A DNA stretch of 64,000 nt from NCBI GenBank assembly GCA_965242545.1, contig OZ251456.1, positions 2,947,093 through 3,011,092 on the forward strand. The letters run 5' to 3'. Positions 1,436 through 18,400 of this stretch are shown one piece after another. The first letter of the stretch is position 1; each line of letters opens with the position of its first letter. The notes beneath the pieces were generated by a model, which worked only from the letters and a program-made list of their open reading frames with translations, searched no databases and was not told the DNA's origin. A program made the translations under genes and the position numbers. This DNA comes from a bacterium. GTDB taxonomy: Bacteria; UBA8248.

Positions 1436-2269
1436 TCAGTCGAGCATAGGCCTGAGCCGCTGGCGCAAGTCGGCCTCGAACTCGCCTCGCTGGACGGTGT
1501 GAGCGGCCAGCAACTTGTCCGTCGAGGCTTCCAACGTGAGCACTTCCCAGTGACCCTGCACCATCCGATGGTCGTGGATCTCGGGCACCAACCAGAGCAC
1601 GTCTCCGTCGTTCGGGTCATGACTTGGACGCGGAGAAGGGCCTCCGATGGCATCGAAAAACGGACGATCCACCGCTACAGCGATCTTGGACCCCCACCGG
1701 CGCAACGTCGGCCCTTTGACCTGCAACTGCGGCATGAGACGCTTGGCGCTGGACGATCGCCAATCGGGACGGCGGAGACGCGACGGATACGGCGAATCAG
1801 GACTCTTCCGCAGCCGCTCGAACTCAACGCTCATACTCGGTCCGGAGAAGTACACCGCCTGCACCTCCAGACCGAACCACATCGCCGCGTCTTCCGTGTG
1901 GGCCAGCACGATGTCGATGCGCCCCGCCGCCTTATTCGTGATCCGGTTCATCATGAACGGGACTTCTCGGGCCACATAGGCGGTCTCATGCTGAAATCCT
2001 ACGATATCCGCGAGCCAGCGCAGGAGCTGCCCGTCCTCGTCGAAGCGAGCCGGACAGACGATCACCGGTTCGCCCGCTGGTTCGCCGGACTCCTCGTACC
2101 TTTGGAGGCTGCATACTCCGCCCTGCTTGCTGCATTGCATCCCCGCGAAGGGACACGCCGGGGCGTTTCCTCGCGTCGACAGGGCAGTCGCGGCCCGGCG
2201 GCGGCGCTCGTCAGGCGAGAGCGCCAGCAGGGGCCTGCCGTACCACTCGCCGATCCCGTATCGACTCAT
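1436..2269 (-). CDS. Type II restriction endonuclease, NotI family (putative)
   Basis: Cys4 cluster pattern CPF..C...GVC...VCP.RF followed by a 'GRIDIVLA ... GLEVQAVYFSG' block, matching the NotI metal-binding/PD-(D/E)xK layout as I remember it. Start overlaps the stop of the upstream methyltransferase by 4 bp (ATGA). Confidence 0.5.
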   Translation of the reverse strand: MSRYGIGEWYGRPLLALSPDERRRRAATALSTRGNAPACPFAGMQCSKQGGVCSLQRYEESGEPAGEPVIVCPARFDEDGQLLRWLADIVGFQHETAYVAREVPFMMNRITNKAAGRIDIVLAHTEDAAMWFGLEVQAVYFSGPSMSVEFERLRKSPDSPYPSRLRRPDWRSSSAKRLMPQLQVKGPTLRRWGSKIAVAVDRPFFDAIGGPSPRPSHDPNDGDVLWLVPEIHDHRMVQGHWEVLTLEASTDKLLAAHTVQRGEFEADLRQRLRPMLD

Positions 2270-3204
2270 GCGAATGTCTGTTGCCTCGTGATCACCAACT
2301 CGGGAACCTTCGCGTGGTGCCCGTTCTTCATGGCTACGATCACCGCGTGGAAGCGATGCTTCTCCAGCAACGCGATGACTTCCGGGGAACAGTCGTAGGT
2401 CATGAGAAATTCGACCTTGGTGTCCGCCATTAGCTCGAACAGCCGAACATGATCAAGGTCGTTATGGGCATACAGGCGCGCGCCCGCGCGTTTCCCGCCA
2501 TCGGTCGTATACGGCGGGTCAAGAAAGAAGCAGGCATGGTCATGGTGACCCGCCGCGCTCTCCAAGTACGCCAGTCCGTCTCCCTCGAAGAACGAGATGC
2601 GGTCCTGATGGTCCCCGATGAGCCGGAGACGCTTGCAGAGCGTCTCGGGATACCACCGCGATCCTATTCCCGCCCCGTTCTCGCCGCTCCTCGTCAGAGA
2701 CGCCCCAGGGGCCAGAATGCCGCCTCGCCTGGTCCGGTTGAGCACCAACGTTCGGAATCCGTGGCTCACCACGTCGTTCGGGGCTTGGCTCTCCAAGGCC
2801 CGCACGGTCTCCCGGGTCGGCTCGAAGTCCGCGATCCGGTCGATAAGCTCCTGGGTGTGCTGCAGAGCCGCGCGCCAGAACGCAGCGACGTCACGATCCA
2901 TATCCACCATGAGCGCGCGCGCAACGAACTGTTCCACGACAGCGAGCAGCGACACGACGGCTCCGCCGGCGAAGGGTTCGATGATGACCTCTCGGGGTCC
3001 GAGATTCTTGAGCCAGACGCGGATGTGGGGGATCAGCCAAGTCTTGCCGCCCGGATACCGGAGCGGGCTCAGCTGGGGGACGGAAGCGACATTAACGGCG
3101 GGAATGGGGGATTCGGGAAGTATGGTTCGGAGAGGTCGCAAGAGGGCGCGGGCCATCTTCTCGGGGGTTGCGCTGTCGTAGAACCCATCGGGGAGCGTCT
3201 GCAT
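2266..3204 (-). CDS. Dam-family (D12 class) N6-adenine DNA methyltransferase
   Basis: Motif I 'LRYPGGKTWL' (FxGxG-like, Dam 'AGGK' type) and motif IV 'DPPY' (FFLDPPYTTDGG). Strong AGGAGG ribosome-binding site directly upstream of the ATG at 3204. Confidence 0.85.
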   Translation of the reverse strand: MQTLPDGFYDSATPEKMARALLRPLRTILPESPIPAVNVASVPQLSPLRYPGGKTWLIPHIRVWLKNLGPREVIIEPFAGGAVVSLLAVVEQFVARALMVDMDRDVAAFWRAALQHTQELIDRIADFEPTRETVRALESQAPNDVVSHGFRTLVLNRTRRGGILAPGASLTRSGENGAGIGSRWYPETLCKRLRLIGDHQDRISFFEGDGLAYLESAAGHHDHACFFLDPPYTTDGGKRAGARLYAHNDLDHVRLFELMADTKVEFLMTYDCSPEVIALLEKHRFHAVIVAMKNGHHAKVPELVITRQQTFA

Positions 3205-3207
3205 GGC

Positions 3208-3465
3208 TCAGTCCTCCTGATGTGCGCCCGAAGGGAGTCCGTCATCGGCGATGAGCCCTCGGCGCATGAGGCGCTTCCCGATGAGCCCGGCTACGGCATG
3301 TCGCATGATATTCAGCGCGCCCTCCTCTCTCAGGTTGCGCTTCGCGGCGAATTGCCGGACATGCCGATCAAGATGCTTCGGGCTCGTCTTGTGGCAGGCG
3401 CCGGCATACGCCCGCTTGAGCGCGGCACGGAAGCTCTCGACGCCATTCGTGCACGCATTGCAACT
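3208..3465 (-). mobile_element. IS1595-family transposase, C-terminal fragment (remnant, no start codon)
   Basis: Minus-strand frame reads '...ACTNGVESFRAALKRAYAGACHKTSPKHLDRHVRQFAAKRNLREE...HQED*'. This matches the conserved IS1595/ISXO2 C-terminal block 'HTNTIEGFWSLLKRGIVGTYHHVSPKHLQRYLDEFAFRYN'. The frame is open upstream only to 3552, has no Met, and runs into osmC in another frame. The stop TGA is 3 nt before the methyltransferase ATG. Confidence 0.5.
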
Positions 3466-3497
3466 CCAACCCCCGGGCGCGGGAAGCGAGCGCGGGC

Positions 3498-4086: not shown

Positions 4087-5493
4087 TTATTTCTCCTGGT
4101 TGCTTTCCCGTGCGGTGCGGCCCTTTTCGTGAACAGGTGAACGCTCGGCGACATCCGGCGCGTCTCTTCGGTCAATGCGACGCTTGTTCAACAGCTGGGT
4201 CTGAACCACCCATTCAGAAACACGGAAACGCTTTGCTGTTTCATGCCGTTTTTCATCCGAGGAATAATCCTCAGCCATCATCTCATCCACGGAGGCAAAC
4301 GGACTCAGAAGTTCCGCGGCGAACGCGCGCTGCATCTTCTGCCGATAGCTGTAGGCGCGCGTAACGGGGAAAAGCGGCTCGCCGGATTGAACGAGCTGAT
4401 TCTGAAATACAAGATCGCCGATCAGGCGAGCAAGATCGAAACGCCGGCCCGTTTCCATTTTCGAGCTGAGATACACAAGCGCGCGCGCGTCCTCTCCGGC
4501 GAGGGCGAAAGATATTTTAGGCGACTGCCCGTTTTTCTCCGAAATCGCGTCTCGCATACTTCCGGCGAATTCCACAAGTTGCTTGTCGGAAATTAACTGT
4601 CCATCCAGGTTTTCCTGGTCGCGGATTCTTTTTGCGCAAAACTCTCCCACGCGCCAAGCTTCTTCTCGCCCCAGTTGCGGCATTCCCGTCACGTCGCCCA
4701 GCTTGATCGCGTCATCTGGATTGGCCTCGAAACCCTCCCGCTTGGCGATGTCCGAGATGTCGCTCGCCCGCATCATGCCGTCCAAGGCATCGGTGTCAAG
4801 CGTTGCGTCGGCGGCGAGTTCTCCCAGTGCCTTTTCTCCCAATTTCGCCGCATCGTCGAGACGACGGCGAATCGCGGCCTCGTCGGCTTCGCCCGGCTCG
4901 TAGCCGAGCTGCGCTTCCAGCCGCCGAAACCGGGCGATGTCCGGTTTGCTTCTCTCCTCTTTCAGATCGCTCCACAGGCGATGGAGATTGGTTTCCCGGA
5001 CGTCCTTCGCTTCAAGCCTGCTCAGGATATCTTTCAGGAATCCGTCGAAGGCGGCCTCCGGGCTGTCCGCCGGAACCGCCTGGCGCTTTGCTCCCATGTA
5101 ACGGAACAGAGCCGTTTCGGGACTCCCGGAAGGTTCGGAAGTCAAGAAGGATTGCAACCCGTCAGAGTAAATGGTGACGTTGGGCCATGCGTAGCCCTCG
5201 CCGATTGCCGACATCCGATGCGCGAAATCCCAACGACTCACGGCGTTTTCGTCGGTCGAACGGGGGCGGCCAACCTCCCAGCGAAGCCGCCACCAGTTCC
5301 AGGCGATCCATTCGGCGATGGGGTAGCCGGAAACATGCGGCCCATAGCGGAGTTCCTTCCGCTCGATATCCTCGCCCGCAGTCAGTGGGTGTCCGTTCGC
5401 CGCCACCGAGAAAAGGCCGAACGTCGCCCGCTCTTCAGCCGACCCGGAAGCGAGGCGTTCGGAGGAGAGTGAAATGGTCAGCTCGCCGGACAT
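4087..5493 (-). CDS. Hypothetical protein, 468 aa, with a C-terminal helix-turn-helix-like segment (downstream gene of a two-gene module)
   Basis: Long ORF with no family I can recognise. The C-terminal 'DEKRHETAKRFRVSEWVVQTQLLNKRRI' looks like a DNA-binding helix-turn-helix. The ATG at 5493 is preceded by AAGGAG and lies 12 nt after the stop of the upstream 156-aa gene. The track starts at GTG 5505. Confidence 0.55.
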   Translation of the reverse strand: MSGELTISLSSERLASGSAEERATFGLFSVAANGHPLTAGEDIERKELRYGPHVSGYPIAEWIAWNWWRLRWEVGRPRSTDENAVSRWDFAHRMSAIGEGYAWPNVTIYSDGLQSFLTSEPSGSPETALFRYMGAKRQAVPADSPEAAFDGFLKDILSRLEAKDVRETNLHRLWSDLKEERSKPDIARFRRLEAQLGYEPGEADEAAIRRRLDDAAKLGEKALGELAADATLDTDALDGMMRASDISDIAKREGFEANPDDAIKLGDVTGMPQLGREEAWRVGEFCAKRIRDQENLDGQLISDKQLVEFAGSMRDAISEKNGQSPKISFALAGEDARALVYLSSKMETGRRFDLARLIGDLVFQNQLVQSGEPLFPVTRAYSYRQKMQRAFAAELLSPFASVDEMMAEDYSSDEKRHETAKRFRVSEWVVQTQLLNKRRIDRRDAPDVAERSPVHEKGRTARESNQEK

Positions 5494-5945
5494 CTCGAAC
5501 TCCACTCCTTGAGAATCATTTCTTTCATGGGATCATCATCGCCAAGTTCATATCCATGATAATCTCCTTCCCTCCCATGTATTGCCTCATATACGCGCCC
5601 ATCCGGGTCCACCGCCCAGACGTGTTTGGGAAACTCCCTCGTAAGGCGGCCGCTGATCATACCTCGCCTTATGCCCTCCCGAAAGAGAGCCTTCGCTTCG
5701 GCGCGCTCCACTATCCTGCCGCCATCGCATAATGATTTGTTCGGGCGCGGATTCGCCGGCGGGTGAAAGCCATAGTCGGCGGCGTTCCGTTTGTGGAGAG
5801 AGCTGCCCGTATATTTCGCCCTGCTTGCGTATCGCTCCAGAACATCCGGGGCAACCTCGTCTTTTGGGATGATTCTGCGCTTGGGGTTGTTGCCTTGGCG
5901 CTTTCGCATTGACTGGCTTTCCTGCCAACCGATCGCCGGTTTCAT
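5478..5945 (-). CDS. Hypothetical small protein (143-156 aa), upstream gene of the two-gene module
   Basis: Real part of track ORF 5478..6341, whose N-terminal 130 aa is an alternate frame of bcp. Two candidate starts: ATG 5945, or ATG 5909 (MRKRQGNN) with a better AGGAAAG ribosome-binding site. No Walker motif and no fold I recognise. Confidence 0.45.
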   Translation of the reverse strand: MKPAIGWQESQSMRKRQGNNPKRRIIPKDEVAPDVLERYASRAKYTGSSLHKRNAADYGFHPPANPRPNKSLCDGGRIVERAEAKALFREGIRRGMISGRLTREFPKHVWAVDPDGRVYEAIHGREGDYHGYELGDDDPMKEMILKEWSSRCPAS

Positions 5946-6016
5946 GGCGTCGGCCGATAAAAGCGACTTGCAGGAGTCGTTTTGGAACCCCGCGAACACC
6001 CGCGGCGGGGCGGCGG

Positions 6017-6475
6017 CTAGAGCGCTTTCAGCACGTCCTTCGCGTGTCCGTCCACCTTCACGTTCCTGAAAACCTTTTCGACGACGCCCTTCTCGTCGAT
6101 GATGTAGGTGGTGCGGAAGATGCCGTTGAACTTTCTGCCGAACAGCGTTTTTTCGCCATACGCCCCGTATTTCGATGAAATGACGCCGTCCGGATCCGCC
6201 AGCAGGGTGAACTCCAGGCTCAGCTTCTCCGAAAATTTCTTGTGGCTGACCTCGTTGTCGGGGCTCACGCCGATGACGGTGGCGTTTTTCCGCTCCATCT
6301 TCCGCAGCTCCCTGTTGAAGTCCTGCGCCTCGGTCGTGCATCCGGGCGTGTTGTCCTTGGGGTAGAAGTAGAGGACGACCTTCCGGCCCTTGTATCCCGA
6401 AAGGCGGCGCACCTTGCCGTTCGCGTCCCGGAGGGCGAAGGCGGGCGCCCGGGCTCCCTCTTTCAGCAACGCCAT
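6017..6475 (-). CDS. bcp: Thiol peroxidase Bcp (peroxiredoxin Q)
   Basis: 'KVVLYFYPKDNTPGCTTEAQDF' peroxidatic Cys motif. Start set at 'MALLKEGARAPAF' (6473-6475). Confidence 0.85.
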   Translation of the reverse strand: MALLKEGARAPAFALRDANGKVRRLSGYKGRKVVLYFYPKDNTPGCTTEAQDFNRELRKMERKNATVIGVSPDNEVSHKKFSEKLSLEFTLLADPDGVISSKYGAYGEKTLFGRKFNGIFRTTYIIDEKGVVEKVFRNVKVDGHAKDVLKAL

Positions 6476-9376: not shown

Positions 9377-9646
9377 TCACTCGAAGTCCTTCGGCTTCAC
9401 GTTCTCGAAATCATAGTCCGGGAAATCCGGGGCGGGCGGCGAATCGGCGTCCTCCTCCCGCACGGGAGAGCGCCTCGCGCGCGCGGCGCGAAGCCGGGAA
9501 AACAGAATCCAGGCGCCATACAGCAGGCCCGCGGCCACGACGAGGCGAAAGGCGCCCGCGAAATCCCGATGGTAGAAATAATAGGCGATTCCGAGCCAGA
9601 GGAAAAATCCGGCAAACGCGCCGAAAACCGAGCGACCGCCTTCCAT
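9377..9646 (-). CDS. Small membrane protein (two predicted transmembrane helices)
   Basis: Hydrophobic segments 'FGAFAGFFLWLGIAYYFY' and 'VVAAGLLYGAWILF'. Sits between the bactofilin and nitrilase genes on the same strand. Confidence 0.4.
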   Translation of the reverse strand: MEGGRSVFGAFAGFFLWLGIAYYFYHRDFAGAFRLVVAAGLLYGAWILFSRLRAARARRSPVREEDADSPPAPDFPDYDFENVKPKDFE

Positions 9647-9704
9647 CGCGATGTCCGCCTCTTCTCGGGCGTCCGGCCTCTCCGTCTCGCGCGCGCCCGG
9701 CCCT

Positions 9705-10145
9705 TCAGGACGCCCGCCCCGCCGGTTCGCCCTCCCGCGCGCTCTCCGCCGTCGCCTCGGGCGCCTCTTCCGCCTCCCCCGATTCGTCCGATTCGCCCGA
9801 CTCCTCCGACTCGCCCATCATGCGGCAGGCGCCCTCGAACACCGCGCCGTCCTCGATGTAGATGCTCCGCGTATGGATGTCGCCCCGCACGTGGGCGCCG
9901 ACCCGGACCTCGCATTTTTCCTTCGCCACGATTTTCCCCTCCACCCGGCCCATCACGATGACGACGCCGGCCGCGATGCGCGCCGTCACCCGCGCCGCCG
10001 GGCCGATGATGAAGGTGTCCTCCGTGACGACCTCCCCCTCCAGGACGCCGTCCACGCGCACGGTTCCCTCGAAAGAGATGACGCCCTTGAACTCCGTGCC
10101 CTCCCCCAGGAAGGCGCGAATGCTCTTTTCGTAGTTTTTCGCCAT
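9705..10145 (-). CDS. Bactofilin (DUF583) family cytoskeletal protein
   Basis: Repetitive beta-helical bactofilin pattern with Gly/Val-rich repeats (GTEFKGVISFEGTVRVDGVLEGEV...), acidic C-terminal tail. Immediately downstream of parB. Confidence 0.75.
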   Translation of the reverse strand: MAKNYEKSIRAFLGEGTEFKGVISFEGTVRVDGVLEGEVVTEDTFIIGPAARVTARIAAGVVIVMGRVEGKIVAKEKCEVRVGAHVRGDIHTRSIYIEDGAVFEGACRMMGESEESGESDESGEAEEAPEATAESAREGEPAGRAS

Positions 10146-10187
10146 CCAAACGAACCCCCGCGTTGGCCCCAGGGGAGAAGCCCGGCG

Positions 10188-11111
10188 TCAGCAAAGCCGC
10201 TGGAGCAGCCCCTCGAGCGTCTCGGTCGAATAATACTCGATTTCAATCGCGCCCCTGTTCTCGTCGCCCAAAATCGCCACCTTCGTTCCCAGCGCGCTCC
10301 TGAGCCGATCCGCCGCCTCGCGGAGATGCAACGCCTGCGGCCCCGAGGGCCCGGCGCGGGGTTCGGCCCTCCCCGAAGCCGCCCTCTCCCGCCCCCCGCC
10401 CGCGAGCGCCTTGCGGACGCGCGTCTCGAGCTGGCGCACGGAGAGCCGCTTCCTGACGGCGGCCTCCCCGTGCCGCGCCGTCTCCTCCTCCGTCCGCAGC
10501 GCCAGGAGCGCCCTCGCGTGCCCCATGGAGAGCAGGCCGGCGGCCACGCTCTCCTGAACGGAGGCGGGCAGCCTCAGGAGCCGGACGTAGTTGGCGACGG
10601 TCGAGCGCTCCTTGCCCACGCGCGCGGCGACCTCCTCCTGCGTCAGGCCCAGACGATCCATCATGCTGGCGTAGGCGGCCGCCTCCTCCATTGGATTCAG
10701 GTCCGATCGCTGGACGTTCTCGACGATCGCCAGTTCGAGCGCCTCGTCCTCCCCGGCGTCCACCAGGATGACGGGAACCTCATCGACGGACGCCAAGCGG
10801 GCGGCGCGCCAGCGCCTCTCGCCCGCGACGATCTCGTATCCGCCGCCCGGGGCGCGCCGCGCCAGAATGGGCTGAATCACCCCGCGCCGGCCGACGGACG
10901 CGGCGAGCTCCGAGAGATCCTCCTCGTCGAAATCGACCCGGGGCTGATGAACGCCGGGCGAGAGGCTCTCCGGCGAGAGGCGCATCAGGACGCCCCCGGC
11001 GTCGGAGGCGGCGCCCGGGCGCGCGCCCGACATCGGGGGATCCCGCGGCTCTTCGGGGGACAGGAGCGCGTCCAGCCCCCTGCCGAGTCCTCTTTTTCTC
11101 GCGGTCGCCAT
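10188..11111 (-). CDS. parB: Chromosome partitioning protein ParB
   Basis: N-terminal 'GLGRGLDALL', ParB-box region and HTH 'LTQEEVAARVGKERSTVANYVRLLRLP'. Confidence 0.9.
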   Translation of the reverse strand: MATARKRGLGRGLDALLSPEEPRDPPMSGARPGAASDAGGVLMRLSPESLSPGVHQPRVDFDEEDLSELAASVGRRGVIQPILARRAPGGGYEIVAGERRWRAARLASVDEVPVILVDAGEDEALELAIVENVQRSDLNPMEEAAAYASMMDRLGLTQEEVAARVGKERSTVANYVRLLRLPASVQESVAAGLLSMGHARALLALRTEEETARHGEAAVRKRLSVRQLETRVRKALAGGGRERAASGRAEPRAGPSGPQALHLREAADRLRSALGTKVAILGDENRGAIEIEYYSTETLEGLLQRLC

Positions 11112-11113
11112 GC

Positions 11114-11953
11114 TCAGCCTCTCGTCCTCTCCTTCGAGCGCGCCAGAAACTCGCTCGCCAGGGAGAGATACGCCTGGGCGCCCGGCGAGGAGATGTCATA
11201 GGTTATCACGGGTTTTCCATGGCTCGGCGCCTCCGCCAGCCGCACGCTTCTCGGAATCACGACCCGATACGTCAACTCCGGCAGGTGGGACTTCAAATCC
11301 TCCTTCACCTGGCGCGAGAGGTTCGTTCTCGAATCATACATGGTCAGCAGGATTCCGCCCACCCTCAGGGCGGGATGAAAGCTTCGGCGCACCCGCTCGA
11401 CCGTCTTCATCAGCCGCGCCAGCCCCTCGAGCGCGAAGTATTCCGCCTGGATGGGTATCAGCGCCTCGTCCGCCGCCCGCAGGCCGTTCAGGGTGAGAAA
11501 GCCGAGAGAGGGGGGACAGTCGATGAAAATGTAGCGGAAGCGTCTCCGCATCGGATCGAGCGCGCGCCGCAGGCGGCTCTCCCGCTCCGGCAATTCCGCG
11601 AGCTCCACCTCCGCGCCCGCCAGGTCGATGGAGGAGGGGAGAACGCGAAGCCCTTCTATTTCCGTCTGAAGCAGGGATTCGTCCTTGACCGGCCCGCCCA
11701 GCACCAAGGCTCTGTAAAGCGCGGACGATTGCGAAAATAAAGCGAAATTACTCGTCGCGTTCGACTGCGGGTCGAGATCGACCAGCAGGGTCGGCTCGTT
11801 TGCCACGGCGAGACAGGCGGCCAGGTTCACGGCCGTCGTCGTCTTGCCGACGCCTCCCTTCTGGTTCACGACGGCCACCACCTTGCAGGCGCCTTCTCCC
11901 GCATCGGAGCGCGCGCCGCTCGCCGGGGTCGTTTCGCTAAGCGCCGTTTCCAT
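11114..11953 (-). CDS. parA: Chromosome partitioning ATPase ParA/Soj
   Basis: Deviant Walker A 'NQKGGVGKTTTAVNLA'. Only 2 bp separate its stop from the parB start. Confidence 0.9.
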   Translation of the reverse strand: METALSETTPASGARSDAGEGACKVVAVVNQKGGVGKTTTAVNLAACLAVANEPTLLVDLDPQSNATSNFALFSQSSALYRALVLGGPVKDESLLQTEIEGLRVLPSSIDLAGAEVELAELPERESRLRRALDPMRRRFRYIFIDCPPSLGFLTLNGLRAADEALIPIQAEYFALEGLARLMKTVERVRRSFHPALRVGGILLTMYDSRTNLSRQVKEDLKSHLPELTYRVVIPRSVRLAEAPSHGKPVITYDISSPGAQAYLSLASEFLARSKERTRG

Positions 11954-17376: not shown

Positions 17377-18396
17377 CTATGAGGCGCCCAGATGGTCGGC
17401 GAGACCGCGGAGCAGTGTCTCGCGCGAGACGGCGCCGACCACCTCGCCCCCGTCCACCACCCGCAACGGCGACTCGCTCGCCAGGGACTTCGGCACCATG
17501 TCCTGAAGAACGGTCCGGCTCGCGACGGCGGGCCCGCCCGCCGCGCCGTCCGGCGGCGTCATGATGGCGCCCGCCGTCACCACCCGACCCCGCCTGGCGT
17601 CCCGCGCGAACACGCGCACGTAGTCGGTGGCCGGGCTGAGCAGAATCTCCTCCGGCACGCCCACCTGGTGAACCACGCCGTCCTTCAGGATGGCGATGCG
17701 GTCGCCTATCTTGAGCGCCTCGTCAAGGTCGTGCGTGATGAACACGATGGTCTTCCTGAGGTCGCGCTGGAGCACGATGAGGTGCTCCTGCATCTGCTTG
17801 CGAATCAACGGATCGAGGGCGCTGAAAGGCTCGTCCATGAGCAGGATTTGCGGGTCCGTGCAAAGGGCGCGCGCCAGCCCCACGCGCTGCTGCATCCCCC
17901 CCGAGAGCTGCGCCGGGTAGGCGTCCTCGTAGCCGGCGAGCCCGACGTCCTCTATCCAGCGCATCGCCCGGCGGGCGCGCTCCTTGAGCGGCACGCCCTG
18001 CACGTCGAGGCCGTAGCCCGTGTTCTCCAGCACCGTCAGGTGAGGGAAGAGCGCGAAGCGCTGGAACACCATGCTCGTGGTCCCGCGGCGAAACGCGATG
18101 AGCTCCTCCTGGGAGAGCTGGAGGATGTCCCTGCCCTCGACCAGCACCTGGCCGGCGGTCGGGTCGATCAGCCGGTTGACGTGGCGGATGAGGGTCGATT
18201 TCCCGGAGCCGGAAAGCCCCATGACCACGAAAATCTCCCCGCTCTCGACGGAGAGGCTGACGTCCTTGAGACCGAGCGCGCAGCCCGTCCTGGCCAGCAG
18301 GTCATCCTTGCCGGCGCCCTCCCGCGCCAGGGCGAGGGCCTCCTCCGGGGCGTCCCCGAATATCTTGTAGACGCTTCGTATCTCGATCAGCGGCAT
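17377..18396 (-). CDS. proV: Glycine betaine/proline ABC transporter ATP-binding protein ProV
   Basis: Walker A 'GLSGSGKST', signature 'LSGGMQQRV', Walker B 'LLMDEPFSALD', C-terminal CBS-like extension. Confidence 0.9.
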   Translation of the reverse strand: MPLIEIRSVYKIFGDAPEEALALAREGAGKDDLLARTGCALGLKDVSLSVESGEIFVVMGLSGSGKSTLIRHVNRLIDPTAGQVLVEGRDILQLSQEELIAFRRGTTSMVFQRFALFPHLTVLENTGYGLDVQGVPLKERARRAMRWIEDVGLAGYEDAYPAQLSGGMQQRVGLARALCTDPQILLMDEPFSALDPLIRKQMQEHLIVLQRDLRKTIVFITHDLDEALKIGDRIAILKDGVVHQVGVPEEILLSPATDYVRVFARDARRGRVVTAGAIMTPPDGAAGGPAVASRTVLQDMVPKSLASESPLRVVDGGEVVGAVSRETLLRGLADHLGAS

Positions 18397-18400
18397 CGGC

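Follow-up and report, generated by a model that had tools for sequence, protein, structure and literature searches.

The two genes at positions 4087–5945 of a 64,000-nucleotide (nt) stretch of bacterial DNA (contig OZ251456.1 of assembly GCA_965242545.1, GTDB lineage UBA8248; hereafter the window) encode a small and a large protein, and the locus raises the question of what such a pair does in the cell. The original prediction, made from the sequence alone, regarded it as a toxin–antitoxin (TA)- or abortive-infection-type module and as a candidate for a previously undescribed system. In our judgement, there is about an even chance that the locus is a self-contained, horizontally mobile TA-type module that resembles RosmerTA and whose antitoxin would be a pseudo-protease. 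The architecture of the pair has a clear precedent; the family itself is uncharacterised and widespread.

Gene organization of the locus

Open reading frame (ORF) calling and translation of the window placed both genes, co-oriented, on the minus strand within 4087–5945, with the following features (lengths in amino acids, aa).

4087–5493, minus strand: large gene, 468 aa, from ATG at 5493 to the stop at 4087; 776 homologs; pI 5.3; putative antitoxin or sensor
5478–5909, minus strand: small gene, 143 aa, pI 9.6; putative toxin of a family without a name
5478–5493, minus strand: 16-nt overlap of the two genes (small-gene stop TGA at 5478–5480, large-gene start ATG at 5491–5493)
5505–5510, minus strand: ribosome-binding site AAGGAG of the large gene, within the 3' end of the small gene, with an 11-nt spacer to ATG 5493
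5910–5945, minus strand: in-frame upstream extension of the small gene, from the originally proposed start ATG 5945; abuts the hairpin below
5964–5979, minus strand: terminator-like hairpin after bcp, upstream limit of the transcription unit of the module

The two genes had been read as an operon with a 12-nt gap between them. No such gap was found; the small-protein frame has no stop after ...KEW and reads through SSRCPAS to TGA at 5478–5480, and the genes overlap by 16 nt. Among 64 homologous loci with both frames intact, an overlap of some kind was present in 62, measuring exactly 16 nt in 41 and 4 nt in nine, and it was also present in the independent gene calls of other loci. The 16-nt overlap implies translational coupling. 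The operon itself was borne out by the shared strand, the overlap, the AAGGAG site, which lies where it had been noticed, and the conservation of the pairing.

The start of the large gene is shared by its homologs, which begin at the MSGELT... position in the alignment. For the small gene, ATG 5909 (MRKRQGNNPKRR) corresponds to M13 of the 155-aa ORF. According to homolog lengths and the alignment, nearly all homologs begin at the matching residue, and nearly all of several hundred small-protein homologs are 141–146 aa long. The small gene was placed at 5478–5909 because of these starts and lengths and because of the bcp hairpin at 5964–5979. A start at ATG 5909 rather than at 5945, as had been assumed, is thus most likely, and the extension at 5910–5945 is probably untranslated. 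The peptides quoted in the original prediction (WIAWNWWRLRWEV, ETAKRFRVSEWVVQTQLLNKRRI, and GYELGDDDPMKEMILKEW) were all found in the translations.

The small gene is embedded in a long ORF (5478–6341, 287 aa), whose upstream part crosses bcp in a different frame. Given that the high-GC DNA of this region produces many long spurious ORFs, it could be argued that the locus is no functional unit and consists of housekeeping genes or chance ORFs. This explanation carries practically no weight, as the conservation refutes it: intact frames at 40–99% identity were present in hundreds of homologs, start and stop positions are conserved across phyla, both genes were called by independent gene callers, and both AlphaFold2 (AF2) models are confident. 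An origin of the small gene as an artefact of the bcp frame was rejected: only the unused upstream ORF extension overlaps bcp, and the small-protein homologs are conserved. Profile searches showed no clear homology to a housekeeping enzyme family, and the genomic contexts vary between genomes.

Distribution and co-inheritance of the pair

Database searches at E ≤ 0.001 retrieved 776 relatives of the large protein, the best 120 of which are 54–99% identical and 446–480 aa long, and 234 relatives of the small protein (90% clustering). When 1.84 billion cluster representatives were scanned exhaustively with HMMER, the small-protein family grew to 682 clusters at 50% identity (E ≤ 0.001). The large protein is encoded in at least 547 species genomes, counted as one genome per species, and carriers among the matches listed include Binatia, Alpha- and Gammaproteobacteria, Nitrospirales, Spirochaetia, Dehalococcoidia, Latescibacterota, Rhodothermales, and Bryobacterales.

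The loci were compared for the 80 best loci, of at least 547 genomes. The small gene lies directly upstream of the large gene on the same strand in approximately 75 of the 80. Mirror-tree analysis demonstrated that the pairwise identities of the small and large proteins correlate (r = 0.74), a value reached by none of 999 Mantel permutations. The pairing is retained in relatives of only 22–28% identity, and it was also seen on Massilia, Allorhizobium, Rhizobium, Sphingomonas, and Tistrella plasmids and on one IMG/VR contig. All-against-all clustering of the ORFs within approximately 8 kb around the pair, after removal of shadow ORFs over the pair, revealed no conserved third gene, the most frequent neighbour cluster being present in 8 of the 80 loci. 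These results demonstrate that the pair is a genuine, autonomous, patchily distributed, and co-inherited two-gene module.

The G + C content of the pair in the window is 0.56–0.62, compared with 0.64–0.72 in the flanks. Between different phyla, the pair is 55–68% identical and its flanks are variable, and copies are carried by conjugative or mobilizable plasmids; together, these findings point to horizontal transfer. Neither protein had a match in 50,697 phage records, and one distant pair was found among 2.9 million IMG/VR contigs. The module is therefore not typically phage-borne.

Domain organization of the large protein

The AF2 model of the large protein, with a predicted local distance difference test score (pLDDT) of 73 and a predicted template modelling score of 0.73, consists of three parts, which contain the following features.

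5074–5493, minus strand: N-terminal domain, aa 1–140, beta-rich with a Trp-rich helix, WNWWRLRWE (5275–5301); no relative was found
4663–5073, minus strand: central acidic helical region, aa 141–277, with helices at 143–253 in the AF2 model and the conserved motifs NLHRLW and RFRRLEAQLGY
4147–4662, minus strand: predicted C-terminal ImmA/IrrE (peptidase M78)-like domain, aa 278–449, alpha/beta and catalytically degenerate
4414–4428, minus strand: R356-L-I-G-D360, at the position of HExxH by hhalign register; R356, L357, G359, and D360 invariant in 33 homologs
4300–4341, minus strand: QKMQRAFAAELLSP, counterpart of the M78 motif E..AN.FA..LL.P, with Q385 in place of the third zinc ligand Glu
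4174–4242, minus strand: ETAKRFRVSEWVVQTQLLNKRRI, a helix-turn-helix (HTH)-like helix pair, last part of the M78-type domain, which aligns with AHHFGVSYQAASYRLKSLRYI of a genuine ImmA protein

The original prediction had assigned neither protein to a family. Direct profile searches likewise came back empty: the large protein had no usable match in Pfam, NCBIfam (E ≤ 1), PADLOC, or PHROGs, the Pfam M78 model was not reached, and no Pfam domain was present in any of the best 120 relatives. Sequence-profile searches of the large- and small-protein alignments against all PDB chains gave only noise at E > 0.2. The C-terminal third of the large protein could nevertheless be assigned, as a degenerate ImmA/IrrE domain, through a homolog on the Tistrella plasmid pTM2. 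This full-length homolog was found by tblastn at an E value of 2e-7 over 83% of the query with 22% identity, and it passes PF06114 (29 bits against a cut-off of 22, residues 308–403 of 413). Its M78 match extends to profile position 122 of 123 and thus reaches the C-terminal part with the segment equivalent to ETAKRFRVSEWVVQTQLLNKRRI. RefSeq names this homolog an ImmA/IrrE family metallo-endopeptidase; searched against PDB, it gave only noise. By sequence, the large protein of the window is linked to the M78 family transitively only, via the Tistrella homolog. Structure comparison of the AF2 model matched the fold of the large protein to CapP, IrrE, and PrpR.

The motif register was taken from a genuine HTH + ImmA protein of locus L023, which contains AHEYAH...EKRANAFAAAFLMP. 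When this protein was compared with the family profile by hhalign, GRRFDLARLIGD aligned with GRKRFSYAHEYAH, RQKMQRAFAAELLSP with VEKRANAFAAAFLMP, and AKRFRVSEWVVQTQLLNKRRI with AHHFGVSYQAASYRLKSLRYI. In this register, the H, E, and H of HExxH are replaced by R356, L357, and D360, and the third ligand E is replaced by Q385. All four substituting residues are invariant in the large-protein alignment (33 homologs, mean column identity 64%), and every distant relative that was read carries AR..G[D/E] and RQK..RAFA..L.P. With all four metal-binding or catalytic positions replaced, the large protein is predicted to be unable to act as a metalloprotease. On this evidence, the C-terminal domain descends from the ImmA/IrrE (M78) zinc peptidases and has lost its active site. 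Because the dead motif is shared by the homologs and the distant relatives, the domain appears to be an ancient, family-wide pseudo-peptidase.

An HTH-like C-terminus had been noticed in the original prediction. It corresponds to the terminal helices of the M78-like domain and probably does not form an independent DNA-binding domain. In a distant homolog, the equivalent segment gave a sub-threshold match to HTH_DeoR (E value, 0.0032; 17.6 bits against a cut-off of 21). IrrE has likewise been described with an HTH motif after its peptidase core.

The N-terminal 280 residues of the large protein matched no known fold or profile. The Trp-rich region noticed there in the original prediction is present, and W62, W65, N66, W67, W68, R69, R71, and E73 are invariant in the alignment. 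The following segment, aa 74–117, is conserved, yet its pLDDT is below 50. The protein as a whole is acidic (pI 5.3; family median 4.9), and the pI of aa 141–300 is 4.6.

Features of the small protein

With a pI of 9.6 (family median 9.65), the small protein is basic, and its N-terminal tail MRKRQGNNPKRR is very basic. The AF2 model (pLDDT 80.6) has the topology alpha-alpha-beta3-alpha and comprises a short N-terminal strand, a helix at 21–30, a long loop, a helix at 69–81, three antiparallel strands (96–121), and a C-terminal helix. The conserved residues sit in the loop and in the last strand.

5724–5813, minus strand: conserved 30-residue loop YTGSSLHKRNAADYGFHPPANPRPNKSLCD, aa 33–62, with Y33, H39, K40, C61, and D62; pLDDT 64–71
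5544–5561, minus strand: YHGYEL motif, aa 117–122, in the last beta strand; Y117, H118, G119, and Y120 invariant in close homologs

In distant homologs, YHGYEL takes the form Y[H/K]G[Y/W]P[L/M]. A superfamily alignment of 39 sequences showed K40, C61, P94, and G119 to be invariant and Y33, H39, D62, W98, E108, Y117, H118, and W136 to be conserved at 90% or more.

The small protein had no usable match in Pfam, NCBIfam, PADLOC, or PHROGs, no sequence match in PDB, and no HTH profile match. A Pfam scan of 149 diverse small-protein representatives also gave no match and thus no bridge to a named family. The direct profile searches of both proteins yielded only two lines, a Hyd_WA match of 12 residues that just misses the Pfam cut-off and a FolD match far below cut-off; both were taken as chance. 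The structural matches are weak and consistent, and they point to RNase toxins of the RelE/BECR type; the best structural neighbours are toxins, not antitoxins. The residues H39, K40, C61, E108, and H118 map onto no known active site. The evidence is suggestive only, and on this reading the small protein is toxin-like and probably a nuclease, most likely an RNase.

The first-ranked Foldseek match in PDB was CdiA-CT (5t87), which was also the top match in an independent comparison; its E value of 0.16 is not significant. The pair could alternatively be an orphan polymorphic-toxin/immunity cassette; the small protein would then correspond to a CdiA-CT-like toxin tip that has become detached, and the large one to the immunity protein against it. 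We consider this very improbable.

Both proteins contain a segment that is conserved yet of low confidence when modelled alone, aa 33–62 of the small and aa 74–117 of the large protein. According to the models, these segments may form a mutual interface that folds on binding.

A reversal of the polarity was also considered, with the large protein being toxic through its N-terminal 280 residues and the small basic protein serving as an antitoxin or a nucleic-acid-binding regulator. In the earliest comparative-genomics work, the toxic partner in Xre-COG2856 pairs was predicted to be the COG2856 protein (PMC2701414). Such a role would fit the invariant polar residues E21, R69, R71, E73, H92, D111, and S119 in an N-terminal part without a known fold match, the very basic tail MRKRQGNNPKRR of the small protein, and the occurrence of the large gene alone in some genomes. 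However, H92 and other N-terminal polar residues are lost in distant homologs, a toxin gene on its own would be difficult to keep, and the ImmA-domain proteins tested so far act as antitoxins (PMC10440598). The strongly acidic large and basic small protein, as well as the toxins found as structural neighbours of the latter, also argue against the reversal, and we consider it unlikely.

Comparison with known systems

RosmerTA is an anti-phage system composed of an antitoxin bearing a Zn-peptidase and a functionally uncharacterised toxin (10.1101/2022.05.11.491447). In the NetFlax network, the ImmA protease domain is a hub antitoxin (node D25) that pairs with many unrelated toxins; 58% of the ImmA-domain pairs are toxin-first, the zone is enriched in phage defence, and ImmA-domain proteins are validated antitoxins (PMC10440598). 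The pair of the window resembles RosmerTA and the D25 pairs in being a mobile two-gene operon in which the small toxin-like gene, of an unnamed family, comes first and is followed by an ImmA/IrrE-type partner, and in having TA and defence genes in its neighbourhoods.

Membership in RosmerTA itself was rejected. The PADLOC RmrA models gave no match (E ≤ 1) to the large protein of the window and none to its distant homologs, whereas the genuine ImmA protein of L023 (7322–8581), used as a positive control, was matched by 16 RmrA models (E values, 1.6e-24 to 1.5e-08) and by capP (1.5e-17). The large protein also differs from RmrA in that it lacks an N-terminal XRE HTH and carries a unique N-terminal extension of approximately 280 aa instead, and, unlike the RosmerTA antitoxin with its active Zn-peptidase, it has lost HExxH and the third zinc ligand. 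None of the RmrT models detects the small protein.

The domain fold of the large protein is shared with the M78/ImmA-IrrE family (PF06114, COG2856); the large protein of the window falls below the profile threshold of this family, and its HExxH and downstream Glu are replaced. It could therefore be asked whether the pair is a non-toxic regulatory or stress-signalling pair like ImmA/ImmR, IrrE/DdrO, or CapP/CapH, in which the pseudo-peptidase sequesters or releases a small regulator. In ImmA, IrrE, and CapP systems, the partners are XRE repressors (ImmR, DdrO, and CapH), whereas the partner here is a 143-aa protein that no HTH family matches, and the active site of the peptidase has been lost. 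There is no conserved regulated operon near the pair, and no conserved regulated neighbour such as a cyclic oligonucleotide-based antiphage signalling system (CBASS), an integrase, or repair genes was found. The bcp/osmC context occurs only in this window, the other genomes having entirely different flanks, and the patchy cross-phylum distribution is unlike that of a housekeeping regulator. A regulatory pair of this kind is thus also judged unlikely. The CapH/CapP pair of CBASS differs from the pair of the window in particular, as the large protein has no capP match and no neighbouring gene, such as those of a CD-NTase operon, is conserved.

A precedent for non-proteolytic use of a DUF955/M78-like domain is PrpR of Mycobacterium tuberculosis, one of the fold matches of the large protein. 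Unlike the pair of the window, PrpR is an HTH transcription factor without a small overlapping partner gene and without a TA-like distribution. The small protein weakly resembles the RelE/ParE-MqsR-BrnT and CdiA-CT/colicin E5 proteins (BECR-type fold) in structure, with no profile match to them and no known catalytic constellation. With generic type II TA systems, the pair shares overlapping bicistronic genes, co-inheritance, patchy horizontal distribution, and association with mobile elements, and its basic small and acidic large proteins show the usual toxin/antitoxin polarity. A literature search on COG2856, ImmA antitoxins, inactive Zn-peptidase antitoxins, and 5T87, which was not exhaustive, found no description of the family of this pair. 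The proposal of a previously undescribed system therefore stands insofar as the family is named in no curated library; the pair adjoins the known Zn-peptidase/ImmA antitoxin kind and is not categorically new.

Proposed function of the module

In the TA-type reading that we prefer, the upstream gene would encode a small basic toxin with a RelE/BECR-like alpha + beta core and a long conserved loop, and the downstream, translationally coupled gene would encode its neutralising binding partner, a large acidic protein of three parts. The dead peptidase cleft would be kept as a binding site and may hold the conserved loop of the toxin like an uncleavable substrate, while the N-terminal 280 residues of the large protein may regulate the complex or sense a trigger. 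Stress or phage infection would then lead to release of the toxin and to cell arrest. This release scheme follows the same logic as RosmerTA and other systems with an ImmA-domain antitoxin.

Several findings weigh against this proposal. The hhalign register taken alone is weak (E value, 0.064), and the putative catalytic residues of the small protein are not strictly kept, with Lys in place of His118 in some distant members and Gln in place of Glu108 in one. An antitoxin of approximately 450 aa would be unusually large and, unlike RmrA, has no recognisable N-terminal DNA-binding domain. A few genomes (L014/L090 and L040) carry the large gene alone, which is odd for a pure neutraliser of the small protein. 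Finally, the immediate neighbours of the pair belong mostly to metabolic Pfam families, and the approximately 8% with defence matches is a raw proportion without a matched background. The proposal of a TA- or abortive-infection-type module nevertheless agrees with the coupling, autonomy, patchy distribution, low G + C content, and charge polarity of the pair and with its TA and R-M (restriction-modification) neighbours; the expected association with defence islands proved only moderate.

A more specific version would make the module a widespread abortive-infection or defence family without a name, in which a dead ImmA/IrrE sensor-antitoxin keeps a nuclease toxin of a new type caged, the conserved loop of the toxin occupying the former active-site cleft as an uncleavable pseudo-substrate. 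The toxin would be set free once the unique Trp-rich N-terminal domain recognises a trigger from phage or stress. This version is tentative and seems unlikely.

If the TA-type reading is true, the pair would define two protein families covered by no curated library, and the class of ImmA-domain (Rosmer-type) antitoxins would be extended to a branch with a dead peptidase. Proteolysis would then not be required for an ImmA domain to control a toxin, and the domain would be a natural case of a protease fold converted to binding. The small protein would be an additional candidate toxin or defence effector which, by record names, seems especially common in host-associated, sponge-symbiont-type metagenome-assembled genomes (MAGs) rich in TA and restriction systems. 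Annotation pipelines could name two sets of "hypothetical proteins," and the compact pair would be suited to assays of anti-phage activity.

Genomic neighbourhoods

In the window, the pair lies between bcp (Bcp/AhpC-TSA peroxiredoxin) and osmC, and a NotI-like restriction enzyme and a D12-class methyltransferase are located beyond osmC. The latter genes, at 1436–3204, form a type II R-M pair in which the NotI-family endonuclease (PF12183; E value, 2.5e-40) overlaps the D12-class N6-adenine methyltransferase; their G + C content of 0.63–0.64 is lower than that of the more distant flanks. The R-M pair, osmC, and bcp had thus been recognised correctly as neighbours. The IS1595 remnant reported with them was not recovered: the peptides of the gap at 3205–3497 had no Pfam match, and the remnant may sit elsewhere or be too degraded.

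In other genomes, TA, R-M, and mobile-element genes are often found near the module. Two Binatia genomes carry PIN/Phd, YoeB/Phd, and HigB/HTH pairs, and a Pseudohongiella genome carries GmrSD_C, Fic, a type I R-M fragment, an AAA_15/21 ATPase, and a transposase. Mrr, GmrSD_N, and a MazE-type antitoxin occur at other loci, and DptH and a patatin-like protein on a Massilia plasmid. At L090, a GmrSD_N restriction enzyme is the next gene downstream of the large gene. The gene at L023:7322–8581 encodes a canonical XRE-HTH + ImmA peptidase whose HEYAH is intact; within L023:7322–9108, this RmrA-like gene overlaps a 176-aa gene that matches PDC-S70 models, and the two lie immediately upstream of the module homolog. 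A Rosmer-like pair and a dead-peptidase pair are thus arranged side by side.

Across the 80 loci, approximately 10–13 of 143 immediate neighbours matched PADLOC defence models, which included methyltransferases, BrxL, pAgo, Cas1, AriA, and GmrSD-like proteins, and one locus was purely metabolic in its surroundings. The association with defence and TA islets, for which a neighbourhood survey had been suggested, is therefore real but moderate.

Variant copies and carriers

Tandem or divergent paralogous copies were observed in L077, L028/L092, and L074. In a Bryobacterales contig, a divergently oriented and very distant paralogous pair adjoins the main pair (L028:8029–9796, equal to L092:8083–9772). 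Its large protein is 25% identical to that of the main pair, it carries the motifs FCRALAE and TYKGYPL, and an integrase, a ParA-like gene, and a DDE transposase are located nearby. In two genomes, the pair is accompanied within 8 kb by another copy, full or partial, at L077:9564–11353 and 17613–18397 and at L074:15924–16655.

At L014/L090 (9766–10001) and L040, the large gene was found with no small gene detectable upstream. These loci may represent an orphan "antitoxin" or a degraded toxin gene; orphan antitoxins are known. In L021, L023, L039, L042, L056, and L079 (approximately 9580–11350), one or both genes give tblastn matches that fall into two frames, which reflects either pseudogenes or indel errors of long-read metagenome assemblies.

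Most carriers in L001–L080 are MAGs (Candidatus Poriferihabitaceae, CAR/RHO sponge bins, and uuid-named long-read MAGs), and these record names suggest marine host-associated, sponge-symbiont communities. Among the plasmid loci, RefSeq/PLSDB annotate only an 80–93 aa C-terminal piece of the small gene at L082:3524–3950 (Massilia plasmid NZ_CP103373.1) and at L083:3618–3899, where the small protein supported by homology is approximately 140 aa long. Approximately 500 nt downstream of the distant homologous pair on the Allorhizobium plasmid (L083:5742–7093), another overlapping pair of a small and a large gene encodes proteins of 98 and 352 aa, both annotated as hypothetical.

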